DNA of 46,504 nt, counting the filler, from Catajapyx aquilonaris (taxonomy: Eukaryota): assembly GCA_000934665.2 (NCBI GenBank). It is 2 parts of 2 records of this genome, joined end to end, with 100 filler letters (N's around TTAATTAATTAA, not from the genome) between each part and the next. Parts side by side here need not be neighbours in the genome. Positions count along the whole stretch, not along the records: positions 1 to 23,285 come from JYFJ02005739.1; 1 more part is not named here. One strand, written 5' to 3'. The notes beneath the pieces were generated by a model that was given only the letters and a program-made list of their open reading frames with translations, had not been told where the DNA came from and searched no databases. How positions within the stretch are numbered: position 1 is the stretch's first letter; every line of letters begins with the position of its first letter. This document shows positions 1,715 to 23,385 of the stretch, one piece after another. A program made the translations under genes and the position numbers.

Positions 1715-1945
1715 TATAAAGTGCTACACAAGTTTCCTACCAGGCCCTGACCCCCCAAACACTATTTTCGTGTCTGCTGCACCATTAGCTGGATTTGCCT
1801 AAGAGCTTCAGAAGTTGGAAGGAAAAAGTCCGGTAATTAAATCCTAGTCGTTAGGCTCTCAGACAACGGTGCGGATGAATCAATATCTTCAGGTTTTGTT
1901 GGGTTGTCCGCATCAATTCTGTGGGATCAAGAGCTAGGGGGTCAT
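1715..1945 (+). ncRNA. Candidate structured non-coding RNA, copy 1 (alternatively the R region of an old LTR)
   Basis: TATAAAG at 1715; closing stem TGACCCCC 1748-1755 / GGGGGTCA 1937-1944; four motifs colinear with 21907-22012. Confidence 0.35.
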
Positions 1946-2137
1946 TTACACTGCTGAATCAGATATTTCCCCTAATATCTACAATATACTGTACAATTCA
2001 ACAATCCTCTGTAGTCACGATAATTAGTTAATCACATTAGATGTTACTGACAGGTAACAAAGGGAAATCCTCCATTGCTGCATCATTGGGTAAGAAGCTC
2101 AATAAACAGTCCAGCATCGTCATTCAACATGATTCTC

Positions 2138-2223
2138 TTTATTTAAAGGGGTAACAAAAATCACAGTTAACAAACTTGAAAACCCAAATATATTGTTTGA
2201 ATATCACCCTGTAAGCTCTTATT
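2138..2223 (-). terminator. Candidate polyadenylation signals of the TTC3-like gene
   Basis: AATAAA on the minus strand at 2143-2138 and 2223-2218, 420-500 nt after the stop codon. Confidence 0.4.
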
Positions 2224-2639
2224 ATTTTTTTAAAATCTATGTAACGTGTACAACTGTAACTGAAACTCGTGCCATTACTTTTCAGACTGTTAACTCCATT
2301 GGCACAATACCCGTCACACGATTTCATGTTCCTTACTAAGCTTCACTAAGGTCAGTCTTATGATTATAAAGTTTCATCTGATTACATAACAACAGGGCAC
2401 TTCCTTGGAAGAGTTTCATACAAACATGAGTCTTAAAAAATAAATTGCGAGGCAGCCTCATAGCCTGGTACTGGCATAAAATATAAGCCTCGCCTTTGAC
2501 TCTCACTATCCGTATAAATATTACGAAAGACAAATGAAAAAAAAAAATACTTGATATCACAATGGTTCACTACTTGGCCATTTTTAATTTTCATCCTATC
2601 ACATTATTTTCTTCCCTATGACTTAAGCTACTTAGGCTC

Positions 2640-3023
2640 TTATAGAGCAGGGAATTCGTCAGGCATCAAAACGTGCTCACGGCACATCGGGCAGGTGCGG
2701 TTCTCCAACATCCAACTCCGCACGCACTGTAAAATAAAGCAATTTCATCAAAAGCTGTTTTTCCACATGACAATTCTATCAATGGAGAAGTAGGGTTATG
2801 CTACCACTCACCTCCTCATGAAATGAGTGCTTGCATTTGAAAGTAATGACTTTCAGTTTGCCTTCGTAGAGGGGGTCAGTGCAGATGCAGCATTCTTCCA
2901 AGTTGCCCTCATATGATGTCTGGCCTCCACCCCGAGTCTTGCCCCAAGGGTTGCCAGGTAAATCCCCAAACTTATCCAGGCCCATCGAATTGCCGGAAAC
3001 GGTTGCTTCACCCAGCAGTTCCT
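2640..3023 (-). CDS. TTC3: C-terminal RING-H2 of the TTC3-like gene (exons 3023-2812, 2726-2640)
   Basis: ECCICTDPLYEGKLKVITFKCKHSFHEE|CVRSWMLENRTCPMCREHVLMPDEFPAL*; C3H2C3-type ligand spacing; TAA at 2642-2640. Confidence 0.92.
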
Positions 3024-6000
3024 CTGTAGGAAATTTTATTTTTAAAACTCATCAAACGTACAGCTACACGATATTGCCTTACTTCCTTTCTCCTGCAGCA
3101 GTTTCTTGGTCTCTGTTACTATGTCCTCGACCTTCATGCCTGACAGGTTCCCACGCCGGCGACGCAATTCGTGCACCAAGACATCAAGCTGCTCTCTATT
3201 GGTAACAGAAAAATGTTGTCAACTGTCATTCATTATGTACAAGCGTGTAAACACTCACGTGGTGTTGTGTGGAAATGAACGCTTCAGATGAACCAGGAGC
3301 TTGTTGTACTTGGAACTGGTCTTTGGAGTCTCTGATGGTGAGCTGTGAGACCTGGAACAGTTGAAATTTTGTCAATTTCAGTGCATTAAGTAACTACCAC
3401 CAAATTACATGCTGCACAGTAGCAACATGGTATGAGATAATAGACTTCCCAGACACTGAAGTTGTTTCTACCAAATTATATTGTACTGCTGGCCTTTTAA
3501 TCCCGTTATCATTACTTACGCAGCAGAGGGTGCTGGTAGTTGCACCATACGAGGCCTGGCTGGGTCAGGCATCGCCGCAGCACCAGCAACCTTGGCTGGG
3601 TTGAGTATGCGAGGCCTCACACTCAATGTGTGCTTGCCAACTGCAATGGGCTGAAGGGAAATACAAGCAGGTCAAAAACAGTCATCCAGAGTATTCATCA
3701 CTTCATAAAACTGTCCACAAAGGCATGTGCAACTCACTCTATCAGCCAAGACCCTCTGGGCACTCTCTGTCTTGAAGAAGGTGACAATAGCAAAGTTGAC
3801 AAACTTGAAGGTTGCTGCAGCCTTAGTGTTCGAGCCCACATACACAGCCTCTATGCGCCCGTACTTGCTGAAGAAATCCTGCAAATGTTAACATTGGATG
3901 AGCCAAGGTTTTTAAACACACAAGCTGACTTATGTGTCCATATATGCAGCTACAAGTTCACAATATTCCCACACTACCAGTTAGTTTACTAGAAACATGG
4001 GGCATCAAAAGGTGAGCATATCATCATACAATCAAGTAATGAGTAGCGAAAAATGGAGCTGAGTACAATCTATGAAAAATGGTAGTGAAAAAATTACCTC
4101 GACATCTTTCTTGGCCCATTCATTTGGCAGCGTGCCGACAAAGATTTCATGGGGGGAAATAGGGGCTTGCGGTGTATTTTGCTCCTTGGTCTTTGAAGCT
4201 GAAACAAGTCAGAAAGATTACAACTCTGGACTCAATACATATTGGTACACCCTGCACATTGTAAGTGAATGCAGTTGGCCCACCGTGCTTACCCTGTTGA
4301 GATCGTTCCTCAGGGACTGCAGGCTTTGCAAATGCAGGAGCAGCAGGAGCTTGAACTGAAATGGAAACAACAGTTACAAATAACTGCCACCACACTTTCC
4401 CTAGGCACTGATGCTAAGGATCAGCTGACGGAATGGACATCACATCCAGTCTATTACAGGAAACATGCACCATACATGCAACTAAAGCAGGTTATTTTAG
4501 TGCCCACTACAACAATGCCACAAGGGGGTAGTCACTTCTCAAAAAAGTGTACACCGGCTCTCTTGAGTTGCGGCTCTCCCCCGGCTCACCAGCAGGCTCA
4601 CCCACGGTCTTATGGGCTCAGCGATGGCTTGGAGAGCCGCAAAGAGCCACGGAGAGCCAACTACGTCACAACCTGCGGTTTTGACGATATGACGCCAAAA
4701 TGACGTAGTTTTCCGTCGGCTCTCCGCGGCTCACCAGTGAGGGTGTACACCGGCTCCCCGAAGTGGCTACCCCCTTGCAATGCCATTTCTTATGCATAAT
4801 CACTTGGAATCAACCTATGCAAGAGGCACGCCAATGATTTATTACTGAATAACTGCACGTATTGAAAATCTGTCCAAAACAACCTCTTGCACATGGCCCT
4901 GTTCATGTCCTTTAGGCCCACAATTCACTGGCAGAATGTTTTTTGTAAATACAGTATGTACAAGATCATTAATCACACATTCTATGTACAGTGCTGGATA
5001 TTAATGGATAGCCACAAGTATTGCCACCTGGTAGAGCTTTTCATTTACATGAACTTGCATGAAGCAAAGGAAAAGATCATCCAGGTGGCGATACTAGTGC
5101 ATTAATTGCCACCACTGTACTTGGAGGAAAAAATAATCACCACAGCCTTGCGAATCAACATTTCTTAATTTTCCTCCTCTGGCACAAATTGCTAAAAAGT
5201 AGTCCACACAACAAAATCTGCATGCATGACAACAAACAATACATCTACTGCCTCTCCTAATTGCATTGACGTATATAACATGGTTAAAGCATCATGCCAA
5301 AAAATTAGTAGGAATTAGTTACAAACTCAAGTTCATGGAAACCCTACAAGATGATCTCTCACTCGGCAATGAGGCTGCTCCTCTTGCTGGTGGTACAGTA
5401 GTTGTAGCTGCTTTTGCCAAAGAGGCTGAAGGTGTAGCTCTCAAGGACTGAGCCTCTGCAGTTTCCATGCTCCTAGTAGGAACTGACGAGTTCATCAATG
5501 GAAGCCCTGGTGGCCTTACCGGATCTGAGCTGGCCAATGAATGAGGTCTCTGGAAGAGGGGCTGCCCCAGCATGTTAGCAGCAGGACTTGGCATCATTGG
5601 CACTTGTGACACGGGGAAATTGACTCGACGCTCAAACATTTCCTCTGCCAGGGTGTCTATGGGCCAGGTGGGGTAGCAGGGGAGGGAGGGACATGCCAGA
5701 TGGGGAAGGGAAGACAAGGCATAACCCTTCATAAGTTGTTCCCGAAGGGTCGTCACTTCAGCCTGGAAACAAGAATTTTGGCTTGAATTACAAAGGAATA
5801 AAAAGGGTACTATCTAACTCTGCCTGACTTTTAATACCCACCAGCATTGCTCTTTGACGTATATGGCTACGTACACTGTAAACGGTGAAACATTAGAAGA
5901 GCATCACTGGTGAGTCTCTCATGGAGCATAAATTTCTAAACGCCCATTCACACAGGCCGTCGACGGTTTTGGTTTTCGGTCTCGCCGACGCCGCGGACCA

Positions 6001-7967
6001 ATCAGAGCGGGCCCTCGCCGTCGACGGTTTTGGTCTTCGGTCTCGTCGACCAAATCTGTTGATTTCTGTTTTGGTTTTGGTCGTAGTCGATCTGAAACTG
6101 CGACCGGCCAATAGGAGGCCGCGCTTGGGCAGCGTGCATGCCCATTGCCCAAGCGGTCATGTGAACATTAAACTGACAAAAGAAGAGCAGCTTGCGCAAA
6201 TCGGAGGTTGAGAAAAAGATGGCCGCCACGGTAGATGACGGTCGGGACAAGGCCCTTATCGACGAAGTGTAGAGGTGCAGCCTCCTCTACGAGATGGGGA
6301 AGGCCGAGTATCGGAACAAGGGGAAGCGGGAGAAGGCCTGGTACAGTACAAGTTGGGCAAGAGCCCTGGGAAGACCAAGTGCGTTCTGAACCACGTCCTG
6401 CACGTGTTCCGAGGGCCGTTCTGAGCGAATTTATGTACAAACTGCACTTGAAATAATGGCACGGTAGCTCACGTTGCTTCCTCTGCCTTCGAAGGACAAG
6501 AAGGGCGCGTATTAAAACCAGCTGGTGCATGTATGCAGCTGTAATGACATCCACATCCGCCATGTTGCCTACGCGTATGCGGCAGCGGCACTAGCGGCAA
6601 AGACCAAATCCGGCGATGTGACGGCCTGTGTGAAACTGACCAGCGGAAAAAGCGCGACCAGGACTTCGACGCGACCGCAAACCAAAACCGTCGATGGCCT
6701 GTGTGAATGGGCCTTAATGCTCCTATAATGCTTTTTAGCACCACAAGAGCATTAAAAATTGATGCTCCATGGGAGACTCATCAGTAATGCTCTTTTAAAG
6801 TTTTGCGGTTCAAAAACTCCTGATGGTATCATCCCAATCACTTCCGACATCCAGCAAAGGCAAAATCAACAGGCTCTGCTTACACTTGAACATGATATAA
6901 CGTGAGCTTCAAGTTTTATAAAGATTGGGCTATGCCAGTTACAAATCCAAAAGAATGAAAGTTTTGCAATCAATGCCATAAATCACAATACTCACAAAAA
7001 ACGCATCCCTGGTCACTGTGAGCCTGGCGAGGAAGGTGGTCCATTCACCAACACTCACTTGCAGCTCACTCTGCGTGGGTACAGAGGTCTCATTCAACTT
7101 CCCAAGCCAGGCATACAGACGGACTACTCTTTGCATCGTCTCCTCTAAGTAACGGGTGAAGATCTCCTTGCCCACTTCTTCTTTGATCTTCAATGCTTCA
7201 AGCTCGGCCCTGTGAGCCCTCTCTGTGGCCAGTTGCTGCTCCACTTCTGAGCGGCTCAGACTTTCCTGCAGCTCCTCTACACACGACCGAAAGTCGCCTC
7301 TACCCTGCATCACTGATACACTGTAACAGCAAATATATTTGTGAGCAGGAAACATCCACCTCTGAAGGATTAAAAAAGATCCTGAAACAACAGGATCATT
7401 CCCATGACGCTGTTTTAACCCTGGAACCGTGCCGTGCCTACGAGTATTACGGTAAGCGTGCCGTGGGGTCTTTTCGGAACCCACCATATTTTAATTTTTA
7501 TTAATTCTTATGTAATACTTTTCAATGTATTGACTATATACAATAATTCTTTGAACAATGCCTAAAAGGATCGCTAATTCAAAATAAATCTGCACTTCCT
7601 GTTATATACTGTAAAAAAAATGGCAAAAGTTCATTGTAATTATCATTTTAATGCATTTTTTCCCTTGGGGTCCAAAAAGACCCCACCGCATGGTTCCAGG
7701 GTTAATACCTCAGAACCCTGTTTAAAGAGAAACACTGCAAGTGGATGACAGTTCCTTCTGATGGGTTGGCACTCTTGGCTTCTGAGGTACAATCAGCACA
7801 ATATTATTCTGGACACTTTGATGTGCTTTTCATATGGGAATACATCCATGACAATATTGTGACCCTTGTACATAATATGAGGGTCACTTAATAGGTAAAT
7901 GCACAGTGGAGCACACAGCCCCTGAGTGCGTGACTCCACTCAGCGGCTGTGCTCCACTGTGCATTTA

Positions 7968-8010
<43 letters not shown>

Positions 8011-11000
8011 AATTCAGTTGTAGTGTGAGACTTGAAGTTGCAGATGGCTTCATTAGTACCACAGGTCATGGGATTGTGGATTGGCAAATGCTATAAATGC
8101 AGACCAATCAGGTACTGTGATGTGTGAAGATCAATGGTCGCACCTCAAGATTGCAAGTTTATGTGGCAAGAATCCAACAGCCATTCACAATGGTTTGCAT
8201 GAGGTTTCTGGTGATCAAGCAGTAGACCAGGTTAGTGTCCGGCTGGGTTATTTGCTTTCGTGAAGGATGTGTTAGCATAAACTCAAAATCAGGAAGGCCG
8301 AAAATTCCAATTGCACAAATTTGTGTTGGCAATGCAACATTGCTCAAGATTCTGCAATTTCCTCAATGTTGCTGAGCAGTTTTGTTTGACACAATCCCCA
8401 ACAAAGCACTGTGAATGTGTTGGATTTTTTGCTACATTAAATATCAATCTTGATAGTCAAACGTCACAGTATCCAAGGCAGCTGCATTGGCCACATCTAA
8501 AAATTAAACAACAAGAATCTACCGCTAGTTTGGGGTTTACCATTGGAACATGAACCCACTCCAGCCTAATAACCAATTTATAATTAAAGCAGAGTAGACC
8601 TGATCTTATTAATAAGCCATGATCTCTTGGCTGCATATTCATAAAGAAAAATGGAGTATGGAAAGGTCCAGTCATTTCTTTCAACATTTACAAGTAACCT
8701 AATCTGCTTTGCTTACAGGATATCAGCTAAACACAATTTCTGCATGCAGGCTTGTTGGTCCATGCTGAATATTAAATTATTAGGGGAGGGGGAGTGGTGC
8801 AGCGGTAACGTATGCGCCCACGGATGTTAAGGTCCCGGGTTCGAACCCAACCCGGGGAGTGCAGAGTTAAGAGTCGTCTCTGACTTCGTCTCGGGAGTAA
8901 TTTCCTTAGACTAATCCACCCGGGGGAACTCACAAAACGACCACATTTCAGACAAGGAACTGCACTTGCACATCCCCTCCTGTCATCCCAACCTGCCCGT
9001 GGGCCCGAGCGTTGTAAAAATAGGATTCCAAATTGTAACACCTCAAAAATAATAAATAAAGGTCTGGCTGAAAACTCCTAAGGGGTATCCCTATCCCCCA
9101 TTATAATATTAAGTTATTAGGAATATGAGGCAAGCCTAAAATTATTTGAAACTGGAATCATTACATGCTAATCAAAACGCTACATACTACATCAAAATGC
9201 CACATATTAAGTGAAAACAGAAGATTCATACCACATGCCCGGATTGCAGGGATCAGTGAAGGATTGGTGAGGGATAGGGTATCCATAGAACCGAAGGCAG
9301 GACAACCTTCAGAACAGCAACACAGTGATCAAGGTTTTGGAAGGTAGAAGAAAAACATCAGCATGCAACTTTTAGAAAACATTGAGGACAGCAAAGAGTC
9401 ACAAATTAATATACAGGGTGTTAATCCCAAGCTTGTCACCAGAAGATGGTAGAGGGCGCAGGTGTGAGCATTTTTGCATCAGGAACTAGGGGCCGGAAAG
9501 GCACCCTCACCGCCGCCACTCCGCCACGTGCCGCACGCCTCTTGCACACTGCCTGCCGCACACTTGCATAAGGAACTAGGGGTCGGAAACGCACCCTCAA
9601 CGAGTTACGCCCCTTACCTCGTTGAGGGTGCGTTTCCGACACCTAGTTCCTTATGCAAAAATGCTCACACCTGCGCCCTCTACCACCACCTTTTCTGGTG
9701 ACACGCTTAGGATTAACACCCTGTATAGTAATGCCATTTAATAGCTCAGGAAAGAATAGCTGGCTTTCCATAATGCCCAATTTGACGACTAACTTCAGAG
9801 TGAAGGCCTCCTTGAACTGCTCATCCTTCTTGGCAATTTCCTCCTTTAACTTTTCAATCTCGCTCTGCAGGGCACTCTGCCCAGCAGCCTCTTTTCGAAG
9901 CTCCTCCTCGTGCTTGGCCTTCAGCTCATTCACCTTTCGTGACTCAGCCTCTTTGTGGTGTGTCAGGCTCTGGGTGCTTTTACTTAAGGACTGATGCAGA
10001 AATGAAGCAAGAAAAAAATATTAGTAGCATATAACTCTACATCATTTGCACAATGTTCAACAATGTGCCAAATTGCAGTGCTCCAGTTTTGAAATATCAC
10101 AAAGGCAATATATAAACAATTATTGTACATGACATCCCCACACTATAACTGGTAGAACATAGTAGCAATAATCTTTTACAGTAACCACAATTCCAACTCC
10201 AGAAGTAAAACACAACTGCTGAGAAGTGTTTGTAGCAGATCTTATTTCCCCCTCTATTATTTTCAAAGAGATTCTGAAACTTTTTGACCACAATCTGATT
10301 ATGGCAGCCCAAAACCCTGTAACCTCATGTATTTTGGTAAAACTGCACATCGCTGGCCACTAAGAACTGAAACTTGCAGGTTTGGATGAGCTCATGATTT
10401 ACCAATGGGCCTTACACCTACCCTAACACTTAGTCCAAAACAAAAAATTTTAACTCGAAAGGTCACACACCTTAATCTCAGCCTTGCTTTCAGCCAGGTT
10501 CTTGTTGAGCTGTTTTACTTGAGCATCAGTGGAGTGCTTCATCTGGGACAATTTGTCCTTCAGTTCCTGATTCTCGGCCTGAAGCTTGTCACGGTTTGCT
10601 TCAACACTCCGGAGCTGCTTTGCAGGTACCAGGTCTGCTGAGGTCTGGGTGCTATGTGTAGACATCTGCAAGGAGTGATGAAAAATAAATAAAAATAAAC
10701 ACAGACATGTTGATACATTGGGGATCATGTATGGAGCATAACTTCTACACTACACAAGCCATTTATTAGGTTAGTAATGAAAATGACAAAATGCATATCA
10801 GTTTAAGAGCATAAATGAACCATAGCTAACCTTTCCCCTGCGGAACCACTCGTTCGTCCCTAGTCGCACACATCCTGTTTCCAAGTCTGCATGTGGGATG
10901 GTAACACCCTCTGGTCGGTCCACACTATCGGCACCGCGCTCTGTAGACTCTTGCTTTGCAACATTAGAAAATTTACTGGCCACATTATTGTTGTTCACCT

Positions 11001-14000
11001 CATCCTTTGCTTTCTTCTTGCTCTCCCGCTTGCCGTTCGCCTTGCTATTCTTCTCCATCCTGTCACCACCGGTCGATTCTTTTACCTCCTTGGGGATACT
11101 TGAAATCCAATCACCACCTCCGCACATCATCTGGGACAAGTTTGGTGACCCAGACATTTCATTCCTAATGGTCACATGTACGTTGTTATCTTCTCCACCG
11201 AAGATATGCCTGGGTTCTTCCAGGAAATTCAACCCCACTGAGCGTTCATACCCAATCGTTAGACGCTTGGCACCTGTGCCATCCCAAACATTCTTTGGTT
11301 CATCCTGGTTGGGTATGCAGTTTCCACGTTTGTTACTCTGATTGACCAGTTGCTCCAAACAGTGGCCAGAATAAGTCAGGATCTCGGAATTGCTGGCCTC
11401 CTCTGCTACCCTGGCCTGAGAAAAGGTACCAATGTGACCCTCCACCAGCGAGAATGCCTGGCACTCCAGTAGAAACTGAACCATGCCTGGAAGGTAGGAA
11501 CCCAAGTAGTGCTTGACTGATTTCCCATTCTCAGCAGAAGTCCCTTTACTACACTCCAACAACTTCATCACAGGGGCTCTATATTATATTCTCAAAAAAA
11601 TGTGCAAAACACTCCATTTCACACACACACACACACACACATTGCTGTAGTATTTGCTTGTCACACAAAATACAATCTGACGCCGTGTGATGTTTTGGGA
11701 TATACAAGTTAATTCTTCAGCACAGCTACGCACAAAGTACACAGCAGAATGGAATTAATTTTCCCGTAATGAACTGCTCCCCGCTTCTCCTTTCCCTCAA
11801 TAGTTCAAGGATATTTACAGAAACCTACTGTACCATGGACTTGAACTTGCCGAAGTTGGGGGAAGGTACTGTATTTTTTGAATGAAATGCCATTGAAGTG
11901 GTTGGGATGCATGGTCTGAAGGAATCAAATAAAAGCTGGAGGACAGTATCAGCTCAAGAGCCTTCTCAAATCCACAACATGCCAAAGACTATGTTCTCAA
12001 GCTCACTAGAAACAGCCTAGAAAGCACGAGCATGAACAATAAGCCAAATTTCTTGACCTCCACTGGTTTGCGGAGTATGCAGATTCAACAGACCAATGGG
12101 GTTATTTCACGCTTTTGCTGAGGCCGTTTCTCGTGGGCTTGGGAACACACATTAACTCAGCTCATGCACTTGGTTACACTGCTACAGAATACAGAACCAA
12201 AGGCAAACAATCCAGGAAAGTAATTATCAAGGTTGCTTATTCTAAAGCCCAAATAGAAGAAATACAGGTGAGGCCATTCAAGTGCACCTCTCATATAAAT
12301 GCATCTTGTAAGCCAAATGCTAATATGCATCTAAATTATCACAAGCAATGAAGAAATGAGCAGATATCTGTATGATCAGAAATCCTGAAAGTGTTTTCCA
12401 CGCGAAATTGATGACCTGTCCCTTCCGAGTTAAGACGTAAGATATAAACACTTTAAATTCCACGTCACATTATTACGATTCTGGTAATGAAAATATGGAC
12501 CACTTCTGTCCCTGCCTCTCGAGAATAGACCAATGATGCAGTAAAAAGATCGAGTAACACTCACTGCAGTTTCATCAATTACTTTTTACGGAAATTGGTC
12601 AGTGGACCAAAGTAACCTGATCCGTGTCTAACTTTATCCCATATTTTCAGACACAGGCGAAATATAGAAGTATTCATTGCAAATGCGTTCAAAGTGGTCC
12701 TAATGCGAAAGCTGACAACCTGTTAATAAATGCAGAAAAATGGCCAACATTACAGATACATCACTCACCACCAGAGCGCATCAGAATATTCCTAGCCGGT
12801 TCCGGCATGTTTTCCACCTCCTCCTTCAACTTCACATCATCCACTTCCAGTGGCCCGTTGCTTTTCAAGAAATCGAAGAAGAAGCTATCCAGAAGAAAGA
12901 AATCAAGTCAGATCTACATATCTGTGATTCAGATCCCTGCAGTCACCCATTTTTTTCATGATGCTATTTCCACAAATTTTGCAGGAGATGCACTGAGATA
13001 TCTTCAGTACCAAATTACAACATATCAATGTGAAATGGTCACATTCGCTAGCTTGCACAGTAGTCCCAATCGTTGGCATGTTATTACTTTCAAAAATGTT
13101 CCCTTTTACTTAGGATGCCACTGCCCAGGACGTACTTGATGCAGGGATCTACTTTGAATTACAATATATTCTTTGATATAATTACGAGTATAGGTTTTCT
13201 CGGATCATCCTATCCTCAGGAGAATCATCCGGATGCGGTTCAAATAACAAGAGCAGATCCTCTTCTGGTTCAGGAACAAACTAAACACAAAAGCAAAAAT
13301 AATGGTTAGAATGGCGATCTAGTGTAAGATCTCAAAACATTCTCCTAACATTGCCACTGAAGCAAAAATACTCACTTCATGAATTCTACTCAGTGCGGGC
13401 CAGTCTTTAGTTTTTTCCTTAGCGTAATCAAAGTCGTGTTCCGTGTCATCATCAGAATCATCTTCATCAGTGCTGTGGACAAAAAACAGGCAAGTAACGT
13501 TACCACCACTTTGAAAACTTTCATTGTCAGTGTTTCAGAATATTTTCCTACCAATGACTTGTCTCAATTTTATTGCAGCATTTTATAAAGCATATTTTAA
13601 ACTATCCATTCCCAGCTCATTTGCCTCTAACCACCATAAATTTTAAGGAAAGTTGTAGTTAATAACGTTAGGTGTAATGTGACATTCTCTTTTAATACAC
13701 TGATGCTGGTATTGAAAAAGTTCTAGTTAAGAAACCTTGTGATTTTCCTATTTAAATATTGCCACAAGTAATGGTAAATGCAGCTAAGAAGTAGACAGAA
13801 GCACCAATTCTTTTTTCCTTGCACTATAACCAGGTTAGGGGAATATTTCTAGTGACGTCACTTTTTAGATACCAGCGATCCAAGCTGACACATTTTGTGC
13901 AATACCTCACAATCTTTATATTTGGGGACAGTAGACTTGAAAACAAAAACTCATCTCAAACGACCAACACTCACATGCACACGTCATTCCCATTGGCCTT

Positions 14001-17000
14001 GCTTTCCACTTTCTGCCTGAAAGTCTCAAGATCCACAGGCTTCTCTCTCTCCTTTTTCTTCTTGTTGGCATGACGTTTGGTCTGTAAAGGACAGGTCAAA
14101 GTTTATGCAACCCTCGGCTTATAAGCACACTCAACAACATTCCTTCATCGCCTTGCTTTCTCACCTTTGTACTTTCACTGGTCTTCAACACATACTCAAC
14201 GTAATTTTCAACTGAGGGGTATTCTGGACTTTCATCCTCTTTGGTATGAACTTCCTCACTAAGTTTAAAGAGGAAAAGATACATCAATTCACATTGGCAC
14301 CAGGCAAGTTCACCAGAAAATCACTTTTGCAACTTTTTAGTTAATTTGAGAAAAGGAACCATGTTTTACTTATGAAGAAGTGCTCTTGATGGATAGATTA
14401 CATCCAGAATATCTGCCCACTGCTATTTCCCTTTAAGTAAGATCCTCTCCCCATTCCAAGATTTGTCGCTTAGTCACAAGTCATTAAGAAACTCAACTCA
14501 CTTTTTGTAACTACTCTTTCTGTTTCTGCTGCCACACCTGGAGTCATCACTGACATTGGATGAGAGGTCAGAATTTACACGCTGGCGGGAAAGTTTGGAG
14601 ACCACACAGGAACTGTCAAGGGGCTGGCTCTGCAACTGTGTATGTGGATAAGTGTACATGCACCTGGCTGGTTAATTTCTTAGATAAAAGCCACGCATTT
14701 CCAAGTTTGACACTGAATTGACATTTCATGCAACATTTTGGCATACTAGTAAAATCTACTGCTGCAATGATGAATTATCAGTTTCAAAATCAAACCCTAC
14801 ATAGCGCAAACACAGCAGTTAATGATTGCTTTAAACGCCGTTACACTGGTTTTTCATCACGTATAAAAATTGAGTGCCTGGCTACTTCAAATGCCATTTA
14901 CACACAGACCAAATGTCTTCTGATGACAATGACAATTCATTACCTCCTCACTGTCACTAACTGTGTCCTGTCTGTGCCTCCTCCTCTCGCACTCTTCCTT
15001 CTTCTTTAGCTTTTCCTGTGCTTCTCTCTTTTTCTCTGCCCTGAGTCAAACAAGACAAATTGTTAGTTGACAATAATATTCAACAAAATAATGAGAATGA
15101 AAAATAATCACAATGTTCAAGTCCCTTGTACAAAATTATGCGTCTCGTTCAGCCTGTTATCATGTCAATTTAGCACCTACTACAAAGCACACTTGTACTA
15201 CAACAGTAAAACTTTCACTTACTTCCTTTGCTCCTTTACTGATGGCTTTGGCTCCACTCCAGGATATTGAACTTTCACCTTCCCATCAGAATCTATGACT
15301 TTAATGTGAATTATGGTTGAGGGATGTTGCCCGTTTACTTTGCAGTCAGGAGTGACACAGTTCTGGCCCAAGAATTCCTGGAAATAATGACAGTTATCAA
15401 TTACTTATCCCAGATATTATCATCAGCAATTATTTGAACTAACATATTATGATCTAACACATCACTTACCTTATCAGTGACCTTAATAATGTCGCTATGC
15501 CTCTCCTTCCAAGCCTTCCAGCACTGGATGTGAAACTGGACCTTGCAGTTCTCCTGGCATGTCACCTCCACAAAACCCTTAAAGTCAGGGTCACTAAAAA
15601 ATCAACATCAATCTGTTACCAGAATCGGACACAATAAAAACATTATGAAAAAAATGGCAAACAGGCTCCAGTTATAATTTGTTGTTTTTAAGGCAACCAT
15701 TGCATTAAATTAGAACTTATTACACCTAGTAGTAGCCAAGGATGCTCCAGCAAATCAGTTATATTTCTCACCTGTAAAATATTTCATTAGATGGCATAAA
15801 ATGATGGCTGATGGTGGTGCAATCATCAAAGCGGCAAATGGCATCTGGACGGCTATTGATTTCATGAAGAGCAGATTGGACCAATTCCTGTTTGAATAAA
15901 AAGGGCCTTTAAGTTTAACATATAATTTCATGAGTCACTCACATGTCCCAAGCACAGGTTCCAAGATGCATGCCATGACTTCACATAGCACAGTAATCTA
16001 TATGATTTCCTGCCATGTATCAATGTCAACTTACCTCAAACTCCTGAACAGAACCAGTTCCTTCAACCACTTTAGATGATTGCGGCCACGTCACTTGAGT
16101 AATTTTTAAGCCTTGGGATGTCATTTCCAGGCACGACTCCAGCACCATTTTGGCATCCCTATACCTGTTCAGCTTTTTATAAGCATATCCCAGAATGTAG
16201 TTACGCAGTAGTCCATGCCCATTCTTCTGACTTAAGCCCTCTTTAGTATTTTCCACAGCCTTACGAACTGATTCATATTCCCCATGCATCACATTTGCTA
16301 TGGCACAGGCATATTTAAAGCTGCTCAAGTCACTCTCTGACAACTTTATCACCTGCAAAAATTTGAAGAAACATTAGGTACGGCGCAAATTGGCAACAAA
16401 ATAAAATAAAATAACTAGGAAAATAAAGCAACTAACCTTTTTCCCATCATCATTATATAAACTGAAGGCTTGATTATATTTCTCAGAAGCTACCCTATAG
16501 TTGCTTTTTTCCATGGCCGTGAAGGCTTCAGCGAGCAAGGCCTGAAACCTCTGCACAAGAAAATAAAATGGGTGTTAATGATATTACAACAACTACAGAC
16601 AACGATATGTTCGAACCTTCCATTGCCTAAATTTATTCATTTACCAATGTGTTTCACTACAAAATGAGCAGCAGTTCTTATGATACATTCTTACCATTAT
16701 ATAAACGTTACTGGTAGTTTTCTTGCGCTCAACCTTGGGCACAGGAGGGGGAGTCCCCCGCTGCAGCTCTGCCTTGGGTACACCTTCATTGTACTCTCCA
16801 CATATGCTGCGGGATCTGGACCTGCGCTTGCTTCTGCTACCACTCCTTTTCCGATCTTCAGAGCTGCTTCTCGATGATCTATGAGACCCTACCGCAGGTG
16901 GACATGGTGGGGGTGGCATTACTTGAGGAGACGACATTTTGGAAAGATGGCCATCTGATTTGGGCTTCTTTTCTTCATTTTTGGTAATGGTTTCACACTT

Positions 17001-19636
17001 CTGACTTCCACTGAATAAAGCAAGGCCTTTCAAGGCTTCCAGTGGCTCTGAGGTAATAGTAACAACATCCCCATAGGGTACATCATCACTTGCAAAAAGG
17101 TTCGAGGCTGCACTTGCATTGGCATTTTCACCATCGACACTTGCTAACCCCATTTTATGATCTGCGACGTTTGATTGTGCAATACCCAATTTCCCTGCAG
17201 CAGAAGCACATCCAGCTTCTTTCTCACTCACAGCACAATCTCCATTACTTTCAACTGTATGATTCTGTACTGGTTCTTCTAATGCGACACGTTTATTTTC
17301 CATGCCCTCTATGCCCTTCCCAGATTCTTCTTCTGCAGCAGGAGTTTCACTTGTGTCAGATCCCTCAATTCCATTTTCTTCCATCCTTAGTAAATTTGGT
17401 AAAAAGCCACTAGAAAGTTTAGTATACAGCTCCTCAAGCTGCTCCACATTATCAGTTTTTAACTTTCCTTTCACTAGCAACTTTTTCGCATACAGTAAGT
17501 TTTGTAAAGCAAAGGCTGACTTAATTCCAAGGGCATATGCATCCCCCATTGTTGGCCTGATTTTAATTGCGTCCTTGCTATGTTGTAAAGCTAACTGATG
17601 TTTACCAAGGATGAGGTAGGCTTCCCCAATCTTGACATGAAGGTCTGGGTCATTTGGTTCTGTATCCATGCCTGTGAGTTATAATAAAATGAGATCAGTT
17701 TTTTTTACCCCTTCTCATTATACACTTGGGTGTGGTGACAATACAAAATGTGTTAAACATAAACTAATATTTACCCATGTGAACTATCGAAATTTTAAGG
17801 AATCTCAAATTCAACATGTTGAAAGTGCATTGAATATCAAGGATGAAAAGAACACGCTGATTCCAGATGGTGAGAGTTCAGCACAGCACCAATGGAGAGG
17901 AACACTGTTACAGCTTACCCTTGCAACAGTAGCAATATTTTCACAGATCAATGATTAGCAACAGGTACTTGCCCAATGCCAAAGGAGTTCTCCCAGCTCG
18001 AAAATTACCTGTATATCGATATGACAAAAACTAATTTGTCGAGAATGCCTTAATCCCACAACTTAATGTTAATGAGGCATGTGGAAGAGTGACATTGGGG
18101 CGAGACCTCAAGGCATTCATCAATAAATCAAGTAGAATAGGACAATATTTATGCAGTACCCTTCATGACAATGGAGTTCGCCCAGAAAGCGAAATGCACC
18201 GCAAAGTTCACCCACTGTCAAATACAGTGATGTTGTCTCGGTTGAGGAAAATAGTTCAGTTCTCTTGCTCTGTGCCACCATGCCATAATGCATTGCACTG
18301 TGTCTGTCACAATCTCGGGGCAATGGTAAGCCCATTCCTCCAGAGGAACCACTGAGACAATATGGAAAATCATAAGATGTTCTAGACTACAGGAAACACC
18401 CCAGTCCAAAGTACCCCCGATGCTGGTTCCGGGGGCCTGGGGCTTCGGCTCCGGTTCTTCCTTGGGACAATATTGATTGGAAGATTTTGCTTGCCCCGGC
18501 CCCAGACTGTATGGGTCTGGGAACCGGACTTTGTAGGTTTGTTGCCCACAGGTGGTAAGGCCTCTTTGGCTAATTACACCTGCAATTCTGTTTATCTATA
18601 GTCCAAAGCACCCCGAGGGCCAAACTACAGAATGTTTGGGGCATCACCACCCCAGGACTTGTTCAACACAATGTCGCATCATGTGAAGGCCGTCATTGCT
18701 GCACATGAGACCCGGTTCTAGGTGAACTTTGTGGTGCATTAAGAGCTTTGGGCAAACTCCATTGTCGTGCAAGGTACGGCATAAATATTGCCCACTCCAT
18801 CTTGATCCCCTGATGAATGCCCCCAACATTACTCTTCCACGTGCCTCATTAATTTAATACAAGTTGGGCAATTAAAACATTATTAATTTTCTACTTATTC
18901 GTATTTGTCACATGGGCATGCAGGTGATTTTTGTGTTAGGTGAACTTCTTTTACATTGGGAAAGTAGAAGGTGAATCTATGTCCTGAGTCCAGCTATTAA
19001 TACAAAATCTTGTAACAGACATCCTCCATTAGCCATCACAAACATACCCTCATGTTTATATTCAGCAGAACCAGACCAATGCCGCAGAAAACAAAACAAA
19101 ACAAAAATTATACCTAATGCAATGTGGAAAATTTATCCAAGGGTTAGGCATATAAAGGTGAGTTCTGATGAATAAGACAATCCTTCCAATCTATCCATTC
19201 GCACCACAACTTGTCCCTAATTGAAGAGTAAGCCAGCTATAACAAAAGAATTGCAAGAATTACATGCTGCATTCCTCATCAGCTCACATCCAGGAAGTAA
19301 TTCTTGCAATTCTTTTGTTATCACTGGTTACCCCTTCAATTAGGGACAAGTGGTGATGTAAACAGACAATGAATTCATGTTGAAAATATGTATCAGCTTC
19401 AGTCGAACTGGGTTTTTAGCAAGTTTCACATTCCTGCTTTTGCCCATGGAAGACATCCAATCACTAAACACTAAGAAAGCATTCTTTGCATGCCTTCTGC
19501 AGTACACTTATTACAAAAAGGCATGCACAGGATGCCACAGGGATTGAAGCTCACCTTTGCAATAAGCAGCAATAGCATCTTCATATTTTTTTGAGGCCAA
19601 GCACTCATCTACTTCTTCCTTGAATGAGTCTGCCAT
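2640..19636 (-). CDS. TTC3: E3 ubiquitin-protein ligase TTC3/DZIP3-like (TPR, TTC3/DZIP3 Cys-rich domain, winged-helix-like segment, coiled coil, RRM, RING-H2); 27 coding exons, about 1,779 aa
   Basis: Manually spliced at GT/AG sites with consistent phases (5,340 nt). Exons: 19636-19555, 17671-16695, 16550-16437, 16352-16035, 15887-15772, 15593-15470, 15377-15223, 15040-14944, 14635-14502, 14258-14165, 14081-13975, 13472-13376, 13280-13186, 12884-12769, 11486-10831, 10665-10471, 9990-9794, 7320-6996, 5762-5363, 4355-4293, 4198-4098, 3878-3738, 3650-3520, 3351-3259, 3195-3083, 3023-2812, 2726-2640. Motifs include DPDFKGFVEVTCQENCKVQFHIQCWK, LYSFFFDFLKSNGPL...SGGMVQFLLECQAF and a terminal RING-H2. 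The exon at 19666 is open upstream of this ATG, so the true start may lie in an upstream exon (ATG|GT at 21392-21390). Confidence 0.88.
3520..4198 (-). CDS. TTC3: RRM domain of the TTC3-like gene (exons 4198-4098, 3878-3738, 3650-3520)
   Basis: HEIFVGTLPNEWAKKDVEDFFSKYGRIEAVYV...VNFAIVTFFKTESAQRVLADRPIAVGKHTLSVRPR, with RNP2 (IFVGTL) and RNP1-like (NFAIVTF) motifs. Confidence 0.82.
4521..4777. mobile_element. MITE with 8-bp TSD and CAAGG termini (P-element-like or hAT-like)
   Basis: TIR CAAGGGGGTAG(T/C)CACTTC, 17/18 match (4521-4538 / 4760-4777); perfect TSD CAATGCCA at 4513-4520 and 4778-4785. Confidence 0.85.
5893..6797. mobile_element. Small fold-back MITE split by a Harbinger insertion
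   Basis: AGAGCATCACTGGTGAGTCTCTCATGGAGCAT (from about 5898) is inverted at about 6762-6794; removing 5940-6717 restores the palindrome. Confidence 0.75.
5940..6714. mobile_element. Internally deleted PIF/Harbinger transposon with MADF and transposase-start remnants
   Basis: About 35-bp TIR GCCCATTCACACAGGCC(G/A)TCGACGGTTTTGGTTT; TAA TSD 5937-5939 / 6715-6717; plus strand from ATG 6219 reads MAATVDDGRDKALIDEV*RCSLLYEMGKAEYRNKGKREKAW (MADF-like). Confidence 0.85.
7419..7701. mobile_element. piggyBac-like MITE
   Basis: TTAA at both ends (7415-7418, 7702-7705); TIR CCCTGGAACC(G/A)TGC. Confidence 0.8.
7895..8008. repeat. 74-bp hairpin followed by an (ATT)n microsatellite
   Basis: GTAAATGCACAGTGGAGCACA...TGTGCTCCACTGTGCATTTAC (7895-7968), then about 13 ATT units. 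Confidence 0.8.
8783..9104 (+). mobile_element. tRNA-derived SINE, family 1
   Basis: A box GTGGTGCAGCGG, B box GGTTCGAACCC; flanking duplication AATATTAA(A/G)TTATTA at 8768 / 9105; homologous to 40110-40283 and 41490-41806. Confidence 0.85.
9414..9723. mobile_element. Tc1/mariner-type MITE
   Basis: TA-flanked; long TIR CAGGGTGTTAATCC(C/T)AAGC...GGTAGAGGGCGCAGGTGTGAGCATTTTTGCAT. Confidence 0.85.
10831..11486 (-). CDS. TTC3: TTC3-like internal exon (656 nt)
   Basis: Acceptor ccttccag|GC joins ...ILMRSG to GMVQFLLECQAFSLVEGHIG; donor AAG|gttag at 10830. Confidence 0.82.
11610..11641. repeat. (CA)n microsatellite
   Basis: Direct observation; intronic. Confidence 0.85.
15223..15887 (-). CDS. 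TTC3: TTC3-like exons (15887-15772, 15593-15470, 15377-15223) encoding the Cys-rich TTC3/DZIP3 domain
   Basis: AICRFDDC...EIFYSDPDFKGFVEVTCQENCKVQFHIQCWKAWK...DKEFLGQNCVTPDC; not shown in the ORF track because the exons are short. Confidence 0.85.
16695..17671 (-). CDS. TTC3: TTC3-like large exon: N-terminal TPR repeats followed by a low-complexity Ser/Arg-rich linker
   Basis: 342-aa ORF; with the previous exon it reads KYEDAIAAYCKGMDTEPNDPDLHVKIGEAYLILGKHQLALQHSKDAIKIRPTMGDAY, which fits the TPR consensus; AG acceptor at 17673-17672, GT donor at 16694. Confidence 0.88.
17968..18964. mobile_element. Old MITE or fold-back element with diverged TIRs of about 250 bp
   Basis: 17968-18212 is the diverged reverse complement of 18721-18964 (for example TTAATGAGGCATGTGGAAGAGT / ACTCTTCCACGTGCCTCATTAA); TA at both ends. 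Confidence 0.7.
19205..19356. repeat. Palindromic element of about 150 bp
   Basis: TTGTCCCTAATTGAAG...ATAACAAAAGAATTGCAAGAATTAC is mirrored as GTAATTCTTGCAATTCTTTTGTTAT...CTTCAATTAGGGACAA. Confidence 0.8.
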
Positions 19637-19785
19637 GTTTTGTGCAGGAATCTGAGAATCACTCACCTGTAAATGAGCAGAAACATGAGCAACAACAAGA
19701 ATGGCGACAACTAATATTAAAACGTAACTTTTAAATAACTATTGCGTGGTAAATTTCTTGATATATGACATGTAAACTATATATA

Positions 19786-20173
19786 CAGGGTGGTCCAAGT
19801 TCAAGTGTCGTTTTATAACGGCGATTAATAGCAGTGATTTTGCGATGACGCAGCAGCAACGTATAAAATGGCCCATTTCGGCGCCATCGAAAATATTAGC
19901 TGCCAATAGCAGCACACATGTAATGAACCCTGCTGCTGGGTTGACCTGGAAAAAAGTAGATGCACACATGACCTGAGATTGCCTGAGATGCGCCTGGGTA
20001 AAATGGGCGACGCCCAAGGCACCAGATGGACCTGAAATGCAAGGGGGAAGCCTGCAAACGAAACAAAGCTAATATTTCCGATGGCGCCGAAGTGGGCATT
20101 TTACACATCGCTGCTACGTCAATCGTTCTATTAATAGCTGTTATAAAACGACACATGAACTTGGACCACCCTG
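19786..20173. mobile_element. Tc1/mariner-type MITE (same family as 45009-45402)
   Basis: TA TSD; TIR CAGGGTGGTCCAAGTTCA(A/T)GTGTCGTTTTATAAC; near-identical copy at 45009. Confidence 0.9.
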
Positions 20174-20912
20174 TATAAATAATGCGCACAGCAGGTTCAT
20201 AACTCACTTTGCCTAAGAGACTATGCATCAACATGACAGTACTGTATACACCTAGCAACAACTTGTCCAAAGTCCTCATAACAACCGAGATTAATGTTCT
20301 CACAAGAGAGGATAGTAACATTACAGCTAAACAGGTGGATATTTCACATGTCTTATCTTGCAGTTATGTTAGGTTATGCTAAGGTTTCTGTACTGTAACA
20401 GACCCCTCCTTCTCACATGGAAGGCACTGGCATAAATGTTTCAACAGGTGGCAGATGGCATCATATTCGAAAAACTAGCAGTAGTTCTTCACATTATTAT
20501 TAATTCTGATCAACAAATGTTGCCAGGAGATTACTCGCTTTTTTTTTGCCTGGATGTGCGGCAAGGTATACTCTCGTCTGTCTCTCCAGCTGATGTTAAA
20601 CTGGCATAGAAGCTGGGAATGTTCAGTGTTGGGGGATAAAAGGTAGTAAGGGACAACAGGGGCAGCAGTCCAGGCCTGTAATCGATTGTGCCACTAGATG
20701 CAGTTAGGCTACACAAAACTGCAAACAATCCGTTCAAGAAATTGTGTCACGGGTAGATGTCTAATTTTACAGCCCAGATTATTAATGAAGCCCGATATTG
20801 CTAACACTGAAGCATGTGCCTCCATGATTCCCCATCGAAATCTCCAATCTGGAAAACTGCATACTGGACAACTGGCGATGTGCAAGTGCAGATGTTATTA
20901 ACATTGCTAAGT

Positions 20913-21143
20913 CAGTGGTTCCCAAACTTTTTTTGGTCGCGGCCCACCTAACGAGCCAGTTACACCTGGTCACCTCCCACGCAAAGGGAGCATGTGTATG
21001 CTTTCTGTGTTAAGAACTAAGCCGCGTGCAGAATGTTTTTCTTCTTTTTTACGTACTGTGCTCTTGGTCCTCATTTCGCCAGATCATTTTATAGTTTACA
21101 AAAAAAAAATTAAAGCTGGCGGCCCACAGTTTGGGAACCACTG
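20913..21143. mobile_element. hAT (Charlie-like) MITE
   Basis: TIR CAGTGGTTCCCAAACT / AGTTTGGGAACCACTG; 8-bp flanks only partly conserved. Confidence 0.8.
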
Positions 21144-21795
21144 CTTTAAGCTAACTCAGATTTGCCAGAGTCCTTTATTATAGGGGATGCCTCAACAATC
21201 ACAAAATCAGAATTTAGCAACATGTAAAAAAATGTAATCCTTGGACACTTACACAGATGTCAGATATTTAGCAATTGTGTTTAGTTATTAATTTGCTCAC
21301 TTAAAACGTAGTTTAAAAAATTCAACAAATTACGCAGGCCTGTGTGTCTCGGTTAACAACATACAACCAAAATATTGGCTATCATTTACCATCGCCTTTA
21401 TAAAAATTAAATTTGGGAGTTCGATTTCCTTGGATGGAGAAGCAAGTACGCCGAAGCACATTTTTGTATTAACTGTTCCACAATATAGTACCAATCCAGC
21501 CAGAGGCAACCATTTTTTTAAAAGAATTCCCCTACTTCACCATTTAAAAAAAAAAAAAAAAAATCGCCCACCTCGCACATTCGTATCTTTCGTTCCGACC
21601 TGTCTATCTCCCCGATAATCCGTCGATCCACCAGATCATGTCACCCTTTCCAAACAAAGGACGTCTCTCTCTCTAGCTCCGTCCCCTATCTTATCAACAA
21701 ACACCCCCCCCTCCCCCTCAACACTCTCTCTCCTCCCATCTCGGCCCAGGGTCCTGCCCCTAGAGCAGCCCCCCAATGCCCACCCACCCACAGAG

Positions 21796-22044
21796 TATAT
21801 AACATCCGCACCCACCTGTGCCAACCGGCCTCTTTGTTTGTTGTGACGGGCGAGAGAAGCGGCGCCACAGCAGGAGGAACCTTCTCTGTCCGGTCTGGAA
21901 GAGGCGCTGTTTCGTATCTGCCGAATCTTTGCGGACTGTTCGGTTCGGGGGGGAAAAAAAGTCTGCTCTCCGAAGCTTACTAGTCTTGGCTGGCAGGTGG
22001 CGGATCAGTCAAGGCGGAGCGGGAACGAACAAAGAAGCCGTTGG
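21796..22044 (+). ncRNA. Candidate structured non-coding RNA, copy 2, divergent from the TTC3-like 5' region (alternatively a solo LTR, 21639-22117)
   Basis: TATATAA at 21796; about 20-bp closing stem 21821-21842 / 22024-22044; motifs shared with 1762-1883; AATAAA twice at about 22094-22112. Confidence 0.38.
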
Positions 22045-22119
22045 AACATATTGGGATGTCACTGACGCTGCCACTATTATTTTCAGGCTGAATAATAAAC
22101 CGGTAAAATAAATAACACT

Positions 22120-22381
22120 ATAGAGGAGTTGTTTTTTTTACGAGCGCAACCGAGTGCGCACCCACACTCGCGCAGCTCCTCTGTCACAGCATCGTTACTC
22201 CTCCCCACTCCCCAGGATAGCTTTGGCAATGCCGCAAACGTAACCCATAGTTTCCGCCAACCGTAGTGTTGGAAATAAGTGCAGCGTAGTACCCTACGCA
22301 ATCATTGATAATGCCAACCGTGCACCCCGTGCGAACTGTGGTGCGCACTCGGTTGCGCATGCTTTTAAAAAATCATCTGTA
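22120..22381. mobile_element. MITE-like inverted-repeat element
   Basis: GCGCAACCGAGTGCGCACC (22144) / GGTGCGCACTCGGTTGCGC (22340). Confidence 0.6.
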
Positions 22382-22383
22382 GC

Positions 22384-22675
22384 AGGAAGCCCGTTCTTCC
22401 CACGGCCGCCTCCTATCAAACAAAACAAACGCTGCCATGGAGACCCGTCGCGAGTCGCCATAGATACAAACAAACAAGCAAACTTTGCCTTTTATATTAT
22501 GTAAGATAATTGGTAATTCCAACTGCGCGAACTATGGTGCGCACCCATAATAGCTGGCGGAAGACAGGTTATCAAACAAACAAAACAAACAAACACGCTG
22601 CCATGCGGAGACCGCAATGGGCAAATAAACAAACAAATTCCCCTTCATATATTATGATTGTAAGGTAAGATAATT
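22384..22675. repeat. Diverged tandem duplication of (CAAA)n-containing units resembling Helentron/Lep1-type element ends
   Basis: Two copies of TATCAAACAAA...ACGCTGCCATG...AAACAAACAA...TATATTATG...GTAAGATAATT. Confidence 0.45.
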
Positions 22676-23285
22676 TTAACCCACCAATCGGTCGGCACTT
22701 ATTCGAGTTGGTTTCCGTACAGTACATTTTGCACCCACGTGGATAAAAAGTGCGTCAACGACCCCCTGTAAAATGTGACCAAATTATTCATTACATACCT
22801 GCCTATTTCCGGACAACAGTTGCCAGAGTCTGCGCAATTTTATTATCAGTGCCCAGCCAACTGGCATCACACTGAAAAACCCCTTGTTGAGAATCTGGCA
22901 AAACAATATGAGCTTATCGCGCGACTCCATAAAAGGCAGCATTGCAGCTCACACAGCATTTTTCTCCCAGGCTGCGCTTCAAGTGGACTTTGACACTGAC
23001 CTGAGTACACAAGACTGTTGACACCCGATCCTTCACCGACGCTGAGTGTACCGGATGTTAGTCATGCGACGTATAGGAAAATGAAAAGAAAGGTGGACCC
23101 TGTCTGTACGACTGTGACCAATTATAAAAGTGGGCCTTCCCGGAAAACGGGGAAAATCCAAGGCCAATAACTGGTTCAAAATTGATCCCAGGCAGCTGCC
23201 GGGTGCTAAACAACCCCATATGGGCCTGGAGGGACACTTTAACAGCCCTCGAGCTGTAAACTGAGAGGCAACCCCTCTTGAGGGT

Positions 23286-23385
23286 NNNNNNNNNNNNNNN
23301 NNNNNNNNNNNNNNNNNNNNNNNNNNNNNTTAATTAATTAANNNNNNNNNNNNNNNNNNNNNNNNNNNNNNNNNNNNNNNNNNNN
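23286..23385. other. Assembly gap with artificial TTAATTAATTAA linker
   Basis: 100-nt block: 44 N + TTAATTAATTAA (23330-23341) + 44 N; the 12-mer puts stop codons in all six frames. Confidence 0.92.

Follow-up and report, generated by a model that had tools for sequence, protein, structure and literature searches.

The window analysed here, a stretch of 46,504 nt from the genome of Catajapyx aquilonaris, contains a TTC3-like gene on the minus strand and two short plus-strand units, A (1715-1944 with its TATA box) and B (21796-22044 with its TATA box), and the gene lies between them and, most likely, over part of B. The name TTC3-like is taken from the order of the encoded domains (TPR, RRM and a C-terminal RING); an RNA contig covers seven introns of the gene and its end at 2148, and a protein homolog search with an exon of the gene found nothing. 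The original prediction regarded the two units as copies of a structured non-coding RNA that flank this gene. The gene does lie between them, but B also overlaps its likely first exon. The four shared motifs, and in each unit the TATA box and the closing stem, are indeed present in the sequence where they had been placed, and the features are as follows.

1715-1720, plus strand: TATA box of unit A, read from the sequence
1742-1944, plus strand: unit A, predicted RNA of about 200 nt, its start set by the spacing from the TATA box
1748-1755 with 1937-1944, plus strand: closing stem of unit A, pairing probability 0.87
1762-1883, plus strand: shared core of unit A, from sequence and motif-anchored alignment
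1762-1777, plus strand: motif 1 of unit A
1788-1796, plus strand: inner motif of unit A
1821-1832, plus strand: motif 2 of unit A
1844-1857, plus strand: motif 3 of unit A
1868-1883, plus strand: motif 4 of unit A
2101-2106, plus strand: AATAAA downstream of unit A, opposing the minus-strand signal of the TTC3-like gene (2138-2143)
2148-21927, minus strand: TTC3-like gene
19555-19666, minus strand: predicted exon 2 of the TTC3-like gene, likely start codon near 19636
21781-21808: 28-nt stretch holding the TATA box of unit B, between two 8-nt direct repeats, missing from the other allele
21796-21802, plus strand: TATA box of unit B
21816-21927, minus strand: putative TTC3-like exon 1 (5' UTR), antisense to unit B, upstream end at or beyond 21927
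21821-22044, plus strand: unit B, predicted RNA of about 225 nt
21831-21842 with 22024-22035, plus strand: closing stem of unit B, extending to 21821/22044, probability 0.98
21907-22012, plus strand: shared core of unit B, from sequence and motif-anchored alignment
21907-21921, plus strand: motif 1 of unit B
21931-21938, plus strand: inner motif of unit B
21952-21965, plus strand: motif 2 of unit B
21980-21991, plus strand: motif 3 of unit B
21996-22012, plus strand: motif 4 of unit B
22094-22112, plus strand: two AATAAA signals downstream of unit B

In both units the gap between motif 2 and motif 3 is only 9-12 nt long. Upstream of the TATA box of A there are what we take to be GC boxes (1523, 1682) and a CRE-like word (1577), and in a comparison of the two promoters the TATA box was the sole common element. 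The units share no open reading frame, and a 20-codon frame in A (1875-1937) was discarded as it has no counterpart in B. The RNA run X5 has no contig on A and none on B beyond 21927, which carries no weight either way. Elsewhere the window contains a Mariner-like element with terminal inverted repeats and a helix-turn-helix ORF fragment (34969-35866), as well as minus-strand C2H2 zinc-finger exons (28035-28544, 31334-32158 and 42966-43502), one such exon having a zf-AD domain just below the Pfam cut-off (25.5 vs 28 bits). Together with the introns and the TTAGG-type arrays of this genome, such a zinc-finger gene points to an arthropod host, perhaps a hexapod. Also on the minus strand, a strong branch point, a pyrimidine tract and an acceptor are found at 1473-1509, with no evident gene.

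A local alignment of A with B scores 49, which is reached by 3 of 2000 shuffles. The original prediction had been staked on a score better than that of shuffled controls, and this holds in three of five scoring schemes, those with gap-tolerant scoring (p 0.0003, 0.0007 and 0.001), but not with strict scoring (p 0.053 and 0.14). When unit A is compared with 926 tiles of the window, three unrelated places score 50-51 and thus above unit B, and for unit B it is unit A that is the top non-self place (49 vs 47 for the next). By raw score, the A-B pair ranks 26, 728, 26 and 314 of 2148 pairs of TATA-led stretches in four schemes. After correction for composition it ranks 4 of 2082, with three dispersed-repeat pairs ahead, so that A and B form the best non-repeat pair, and their z of 4.93 is closely followed by AT-rich pairs at 4.89 and 4.86. 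This likeness is notable because the closing stems of A and B are also among the strongest in 66 TATA-led stretches, B holding rank 1 and A being tied for ranks 2-4 by a score for start-proximal closing stems that is our own and was defined after the units had been seen. Closing stems and corrected similarity together give about 6 x 4/2082 = 0.012 for the joint pattern, a post hoc value, and a p of 0.01 is easily met by chance given a scan-wide search over many windows. Judged from the letters, the likeness of A and B beyond chance is thus marginal.

Against shuffles, unit A folds with z-scores of -1.9 on the plus and -2.2 on the minus strand and unit B with -2.6 and -0.8, and the minimum-energy folds of the two differ from each other. 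It had been claimed that pairing is retained despite substitutions, and the inner helix (1788/1826) does have a probability of 0.91 in A, but its counterpart in B has only 0.01, and the changes in this helix are one-sided wobbles, none of them double. The pairing of motif 1 with motif 4, which was thought to exist in both copies, does not hold up, with probabilities of 0.00 in A and 0.02 in B, and forcing both helices costs 13.8 kcal/mol in A and 9.2 kcal/mol in B. In the folding model, these helices appear poorly supported, and the fold proposed originally is not the best supported one. In a structure alignment that was anchored on the motifs by hand, after the motifs had been seen, 6 or 5 helices of at least 5 bp (two gap placements) can form in both copies on the plus strand, and the minus strand has none in either placement. 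Three of the shared helices, X, Q and Y, together with the private arm of each copy, are located as follows.

1771-1776/1860-1865, plus strand: helix X of unit A, shared with B
1792-1796/1877-1881, plus strand: helix Q of unit A, shared with B
1828-1832/1872-1876, plus strand: helix Y of unit A, shared with B
1868-1914, plus strand: 3' hairpin found in A only, drawing motif 4 into an 11-bp helix and competing with the shared core, probability 0.98
21856-21913, plus strand: 5' domain found in B only, with half of motif 1 in an 11-bp helix, probability 0.97
21915-21920/21994-21999, plus strand: helix X of unit B
21934-21938/22006-22010, plus strand: helix Q of unit B
21961-21965/22001-22005, plus strand: helix Y of unit B

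In helix X, the tail of motif 1 would pair with the bases after motif 3, with one double change that covers the variable letter of motif 1; in helix Q, the inner motif would pair with the tail of motif 4, and its two double changes explain both variable letters there; helix Y would join motif 2 to motif 4 with 5 bp in both copies. The three are mutually compatible and crossing, that is of the pseudoknot type, and amount to 16 bp with three double changes. Tested against column shuffles, this combination reaches p 0.036-0.07 in one gap placement and 0.19-0.38 in the second, and the ensemble probability of X, Q and Y is near zero in A and B with a program that cannot model pseudoknots. Two sequences are too few to settle this structure. 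Homology and a plus-strand structure of the two units, as originally proposed, are thus supported, but at borderline significance only.

Further evidence comes from a second unit B, which a DNA search of the same genome finds on contig C1345. The start of this contig is allelic to the final 2.1 kb of contig C3420 (window 21153-23285); each version of B has about half the single-copy contig depth, and they are therefore alleles. The alleles differ by 79 events in 2130 nt, and the 248 nt of 21809-22056 contain a single allelic change, a homopolymer length, vs 10 expected (p 0.0004 pointwise, 0.013 scan-corrected). As for the missing 28-nt stretch, contigs of three DNA runs from one sample start exactly at 21809, as predicted by a branch there. 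The region of unit A is nearly homozygous and thus offers no usable polymorphism. The continuation of C1345 does not match the window after the gap at 23286-23385, and the scaffold join there may be wrong, or a structural polymorphism may span it.

The stretch of low polymorphism starts at the donor of the putative TTC3-like exon 1. The RNA in run X5 is spliced, and one contig of this run (record 27) matches 21809-21927 except for one letter, with 221 further bases that fit nothing in 20800-23200. A splice from 21816 to 19666 reproduces the overshoot of this contig to 21809 as well as its one mismatch; the other allele would not account for this. The donor (21816/21815) is within the top 2.7% of minus-strand GT sites, and at the acceptor (19667/19666) the exon start agrees with the intron start in 6 of the first 7 letters and departs from it thereafter. 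From these matches we infer the exon 1 junction 21816/19666, and unit B most likely lies antisense over the first exon of the TTC3-like gene. The TATA box of B is then located 13-19 nt inside the predicted intron 1, and the 28-nt deletion leaves the donor intact. This overlap and the allelic loss of the TATA box were both overlooked in the original prediction. Exon 1 or promoter function could explain the low polymorphism of B.

It may thus be asked whether there is an RNA gene pair at all, as B could be a GC-rich promoter with exon 1, A an unrelated stretch or a weak promoter, and their likeness the best of many chance pairs. The X5 contig is just what splicing from 21816 to 19666 predicts, the donor ranks high, the low-polymorphism stretch begins at this donor, the TATA box is dispensable in one allele, and the raw A-B similarity is within the window background. 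What this leaves unexplained is that the two best units by TATA box and closing stem are also the best non-repeat pair, and that the shared helices, with their double changes, exist on the plus strand only; moreover, the plus strand of B gives a better fold than the mRNA strand does. This explanation is to be taken seriously, albeit as somewhat unlikely. A related view is that A and B are homologous as DNA, stemming from an old duplication of a minus-strand promoter or first exon, with the plus-strand fold being incidental. B is the likely minus-strand first exon in question, and for A the corresponding position (1740) is a GT, with a high-scoring minus-strand acceptor at 1473 (top 0.9%), but this donor of A is only at the 41st percentile, there is no evident coding exon in the about 2.6 kb left of A, and no 5-bp helix is common to both copies on the minus strand. 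Such a duplication is considered improbable.

A and B had also been called a candidate family, which is not borne out, as the genome yields two loci only and the searches beyond it gave no homolog. DNA searches of the genome with A as query find only A, and with B only B and its allele. Four exact two-motif patterns gave 8, 7, 4 and 4 matches, 3 of which are each time A, B and the allele, compared with 38, 5, 2 and 9 matches of control patterns; the extra sites of the first three lack the other motifs, and the one extra site of the fourth was left out of examination. With mismatches allowed, one pattern had 4 matches and another 5, whose 1 and 2 extra sites, respectively, were rejected, and the loosest gave 87 rows, namely 5 own ones, 1 duplicate and 81 other sites. 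Among the 65 of these 81 sites that were examined (the other 16 are more copies of repeats already sampled), motif 3 occurs at two mismatches in 3 and motif 4 at three mismatches in 1, and both occur in none. These seven pattern searches, three of them with mismatches, thus found no third copy in the genome, although a more diverged copy may escape such patterns. A dispersed repeat family on at least 13 contigs has motifs 1, inner and 2 at three mismatches without motifs 3 and 4, a likeness that is taken as chance. A sequence-only model of the units, run over 120 kb, detected nothing beyond the copies it was trained on and the allele. In viral and metagenome contigs, which comprise few animal sequences, motifs 3 and 4 together had 0 matches, and looser searches with motifs 1, 2 and 4 had 21 and 60 matches, with motif 3 or the full motif 4 in 0 of 71 distinct stretches. 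The literature searched, which includes few subscription papers, contained no paper on such an RNA.

That the units are single-copy, by BLAST-type search and by contig depth, bears on another explanation, which the original prediction had itself mentioned as an alternative, namely that A and B are worn-out ends of mobile elements (solo LTRs or MITEs) with a TATA box, a structured R region and AATAAA. The order of TATA box, structure and AATAAA is LTR-like, the units are in direct orientation, and the closing stem of B could be a terminal inverted repeat. However, apart from the single-copy state, no TG..CA bounds with a 5-6 bp duplication enclose B, those around A are 3 scattered pairs at chance level, and no gag/pol domain was found among 11 ORFs scanned. 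Mobile-element ends are thus a very unlikely source of the two units.

The explanation that is favoured here, tentatively and with a confidence that falls somewhat short of even, is that A and B are two old, strongly diverged paralogs of an uncatalogued small structured non-coding RNA, encoded on the plus strand and transcribed by polymerase II from TATA promoters. Counted for it were the pair p values of the three gap-tolerant schemes and the joint pattern, and further the restriction of shared helices to the plus strand, the double changes in X, Q and Y, the low polymorphism of B, the AATAAA signals and the lack of a shared ORF. Counted against it were the p values of the strict schemes, the three window places that equal B as a match to A, the weaker structure test in the second gap placement, the differing folds, the alternative cause of B's low polymorphism, the absence of B's TATA box from one allele, promoters that are alike in the TATA box alone, and the lack of a third copy and of a homolog in the searches described. 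The observation holds for the letters and is borderline in its statistics, and a likely first exon complicates it.

If A and B are such RNA genes, polymerase II would start 25-30 nt after the TATA box, and the precursor would end at AATAAA and may be trimmed to the closing stem, yielding 200-225 nt, comparable to the RNase P RNA of Pancrustacea, which is cut out of polymerase II transcripts (PMC4287351). The core of 110-120 nt is predicted to fold into the crossing helices X, Q and Y, and would need a protein or metal for this, as each copy has a flanking arm of its own that would otherwise tie up one core motif. The role would then most likely be that of a protein-binding scaffold RNA. B might also interfere with the overlapping TTC3-like gene, A would be the copy free of overlap, and B may be decaying as an RNA gene while being retained as a 5' UTR. 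There is a smaller chance, and we would rather bet against it, that the pair represents a new class of small pseudoknotted arthropod RNAs made by polymerase II, with two long-kept paralogs and a core that is switched by the private arm. In the boldest form, for which the prospects are slim, A and B would be a stand-alone catalytic domain descended from RNase P/MRP and thus a third sister RNA.

Small structured RNAs of no known family are rare in animals, and arthropods have recently yielded unexpected RNAs, such as shrunken telomerase RNAs and an intron-borne RNase P RNA. Should both units prove to be expressed, with helices that covary in relatives, they would define a new RNA class, and the TATA-less allele of B provides a natural test, which gives direct access to allele-specific expression and to the response of the overlapped ubiquitin-ligase gene. 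Otherwise, the locus is a useful warning that a promoter with its first exon may look like an RNA gene of the other strand.

With regard to known RNA classes, an Rfam search (Rfam 15, gathering thresholds) finds no family on A or B, which agrees with the earlier exclusion of snRNA, 7SK, SRP, RNase P/MRP and tRNA. The whole window has 11 weak matches, none of them over A or B, and A alone and B alone have 2 each, with 5-14 bits vs thresholds of 44-100. Canonical U6, MRP, RNase P (6 matches) and U1 genes exist elsewhere in the genome, and so do 7SK-like and telomerase-like loci. The LTR features, snoRNA boxes, Sm sites, ribozyme cores and promoter words that were looked for are general knowledge. 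An Sm-class snRNA was rejected for lack of an Sm site, and the genome's snRNA promoter word is absent from A and B even with 2 mismatches allowed; box C/D snoRNAs were rejected for lack of a C box in either unit, and H/ACA snoRNAs as there is an ACA after both closing stems but no two hairpins split by an H box. An HDV-like ribozyme descriptor for a nested double pseudoknot, a simple one of our own used without a positive control, had 0 matches on the 4 strands; of the hammerhead core, a CUGANGA with stem II and GAAA, there is one CUGANGA on the minus strand of A with no counterpart in B, and group I intron-like and telomerase-like readings, made by eye, each fit one copy only. At the usual position, the U6 genes have no TATA box; one U6 class and all six U1 genes read have a common 11-nt upstream word, and the other U6 class has unrelated upstream sequence.

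Like 7SK snRNA (RF01052), A and B have a TATA promoter and a 5'-3' closing stem, but this class was rejected as each unit has one GAUC and not the repeated GAUC hairpin, and there is no T-run (T4) at either 3' end. A 7SK-like locus at C99:61440-61890 (29.8 bits, below the Rfam threshold) has a TATA-like box, two GAUC in its 5' hairpin and, some 440 nt further along, T-runs, and is the better 7SK candidate.

Insect telomerase RNAs resemble A and B in their small size and closing stem, and in Tribolium they occur as paralog pairs (PMC13023368); unlike A and B, insect telomerase RNA genes have snRNA-type promoters. B could also form an H-type pseudoknot with an A-rich loop (21920-21966) as in animal telomerase RNAs, which is not possible at the aligned place in A. 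A match to a TTAGG template is 5 nt long at most in A and B, and a 7-9-nt match to a TCAGG-type template lies inside the closing stem of A with none in B, so that telomerase RNA was rejected. The genome has 830 matches to TTAGG-type arrays, some of which (C53, C260, C414 and C429) have TCAGG units mixed in, and its telomerase RNA candidate (C671:72900-73370) has a 13-nt TTAGG template at 72942 and is located beside the Nup98 gene; A and B show no likeness to it.

Natural antisense RNAs that start in intron 1 are another possible comparison for B, which likewise would start in intron 1 and cross exon 1 and the promoter of the TTC3-like gene; unit A reads toward the 3' end of that gene. Promoter-overlapping antisense RNAs usually have no motif-sharing paralog and no closing stem at the start site.

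A further parallel is the catalytic domain of RNase P (RF00009) and MRP (RF00030), which like A and B has a closing stem and to which the predicted crossing helices of the units may correspond, with X and Y in the order of P2 crossing P4, an arrangement that has a low ensemble probability and p 0.036-0.38 over the two gap placements. Motif 2 resembles the CR-I of the genome's own P/MRP RNAs (purine run and GUC), albeit as a short common word. The six RNase P RNA copies of this genome comprise about three sequence types of 284-428 nt, and copies P3, P5 and P6 have a C box and a D box just in front, with 2-3 nt left up to the start of the RNA, reminiscent of a fusion to a box C/D RNA. Unlike A and B, with their short gap between motifs 2 and 3, RNase P and MRP have a specificity domain (CR-II/III, or P8 with a GARAR loop), and of the CR-IV/CR-V letters only AGU and UCAA are common to A/B and the six P copies and MRP. 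When anchored and compared with the genome's own P and MRP RNAs, A/B reach p 0.34-0.60 (MRP-vs-P control 0.018 and 0.085), and an anchored test of the 3' part (CR-IV/CR-V side) gives 0.45 and 0.45 (control 0.085). An RNase P profile without the S domain does not detect A or B and likewise misses the own MRP RNA, and thus has no power.

It has also to be weighed whether A and B are miniature RNase P/MRP-like RNAs that consist of the catalytic domain alone, with the specificity domain deleted. The order and crossing of X and Y and the purine run of motif 2 match, a hairpin is possible at the place of P3, the closing stem bounds the RNA, the genome has six diverged RNase P RNA copies, and a precedent is given by archaeal type T RNAs, which lack most of the S domain (PMC10966300). 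However, there is no match to the Rfam models of P or MRP, the anchored p values are well above those of the control, the CR-IV letters and the first half of CR-V are not kept, a mapping that fits B fits A poorly, and helix Q has no counterpart. Actual membership is thus highly doubtful, and the favoured interpretation remains that of two diverged paralogs of an uncatalogued RNA, which is not classed with RNase P/MRP and which, by analogy, may work like a compact pseudoknotted core of the P/MRP type.
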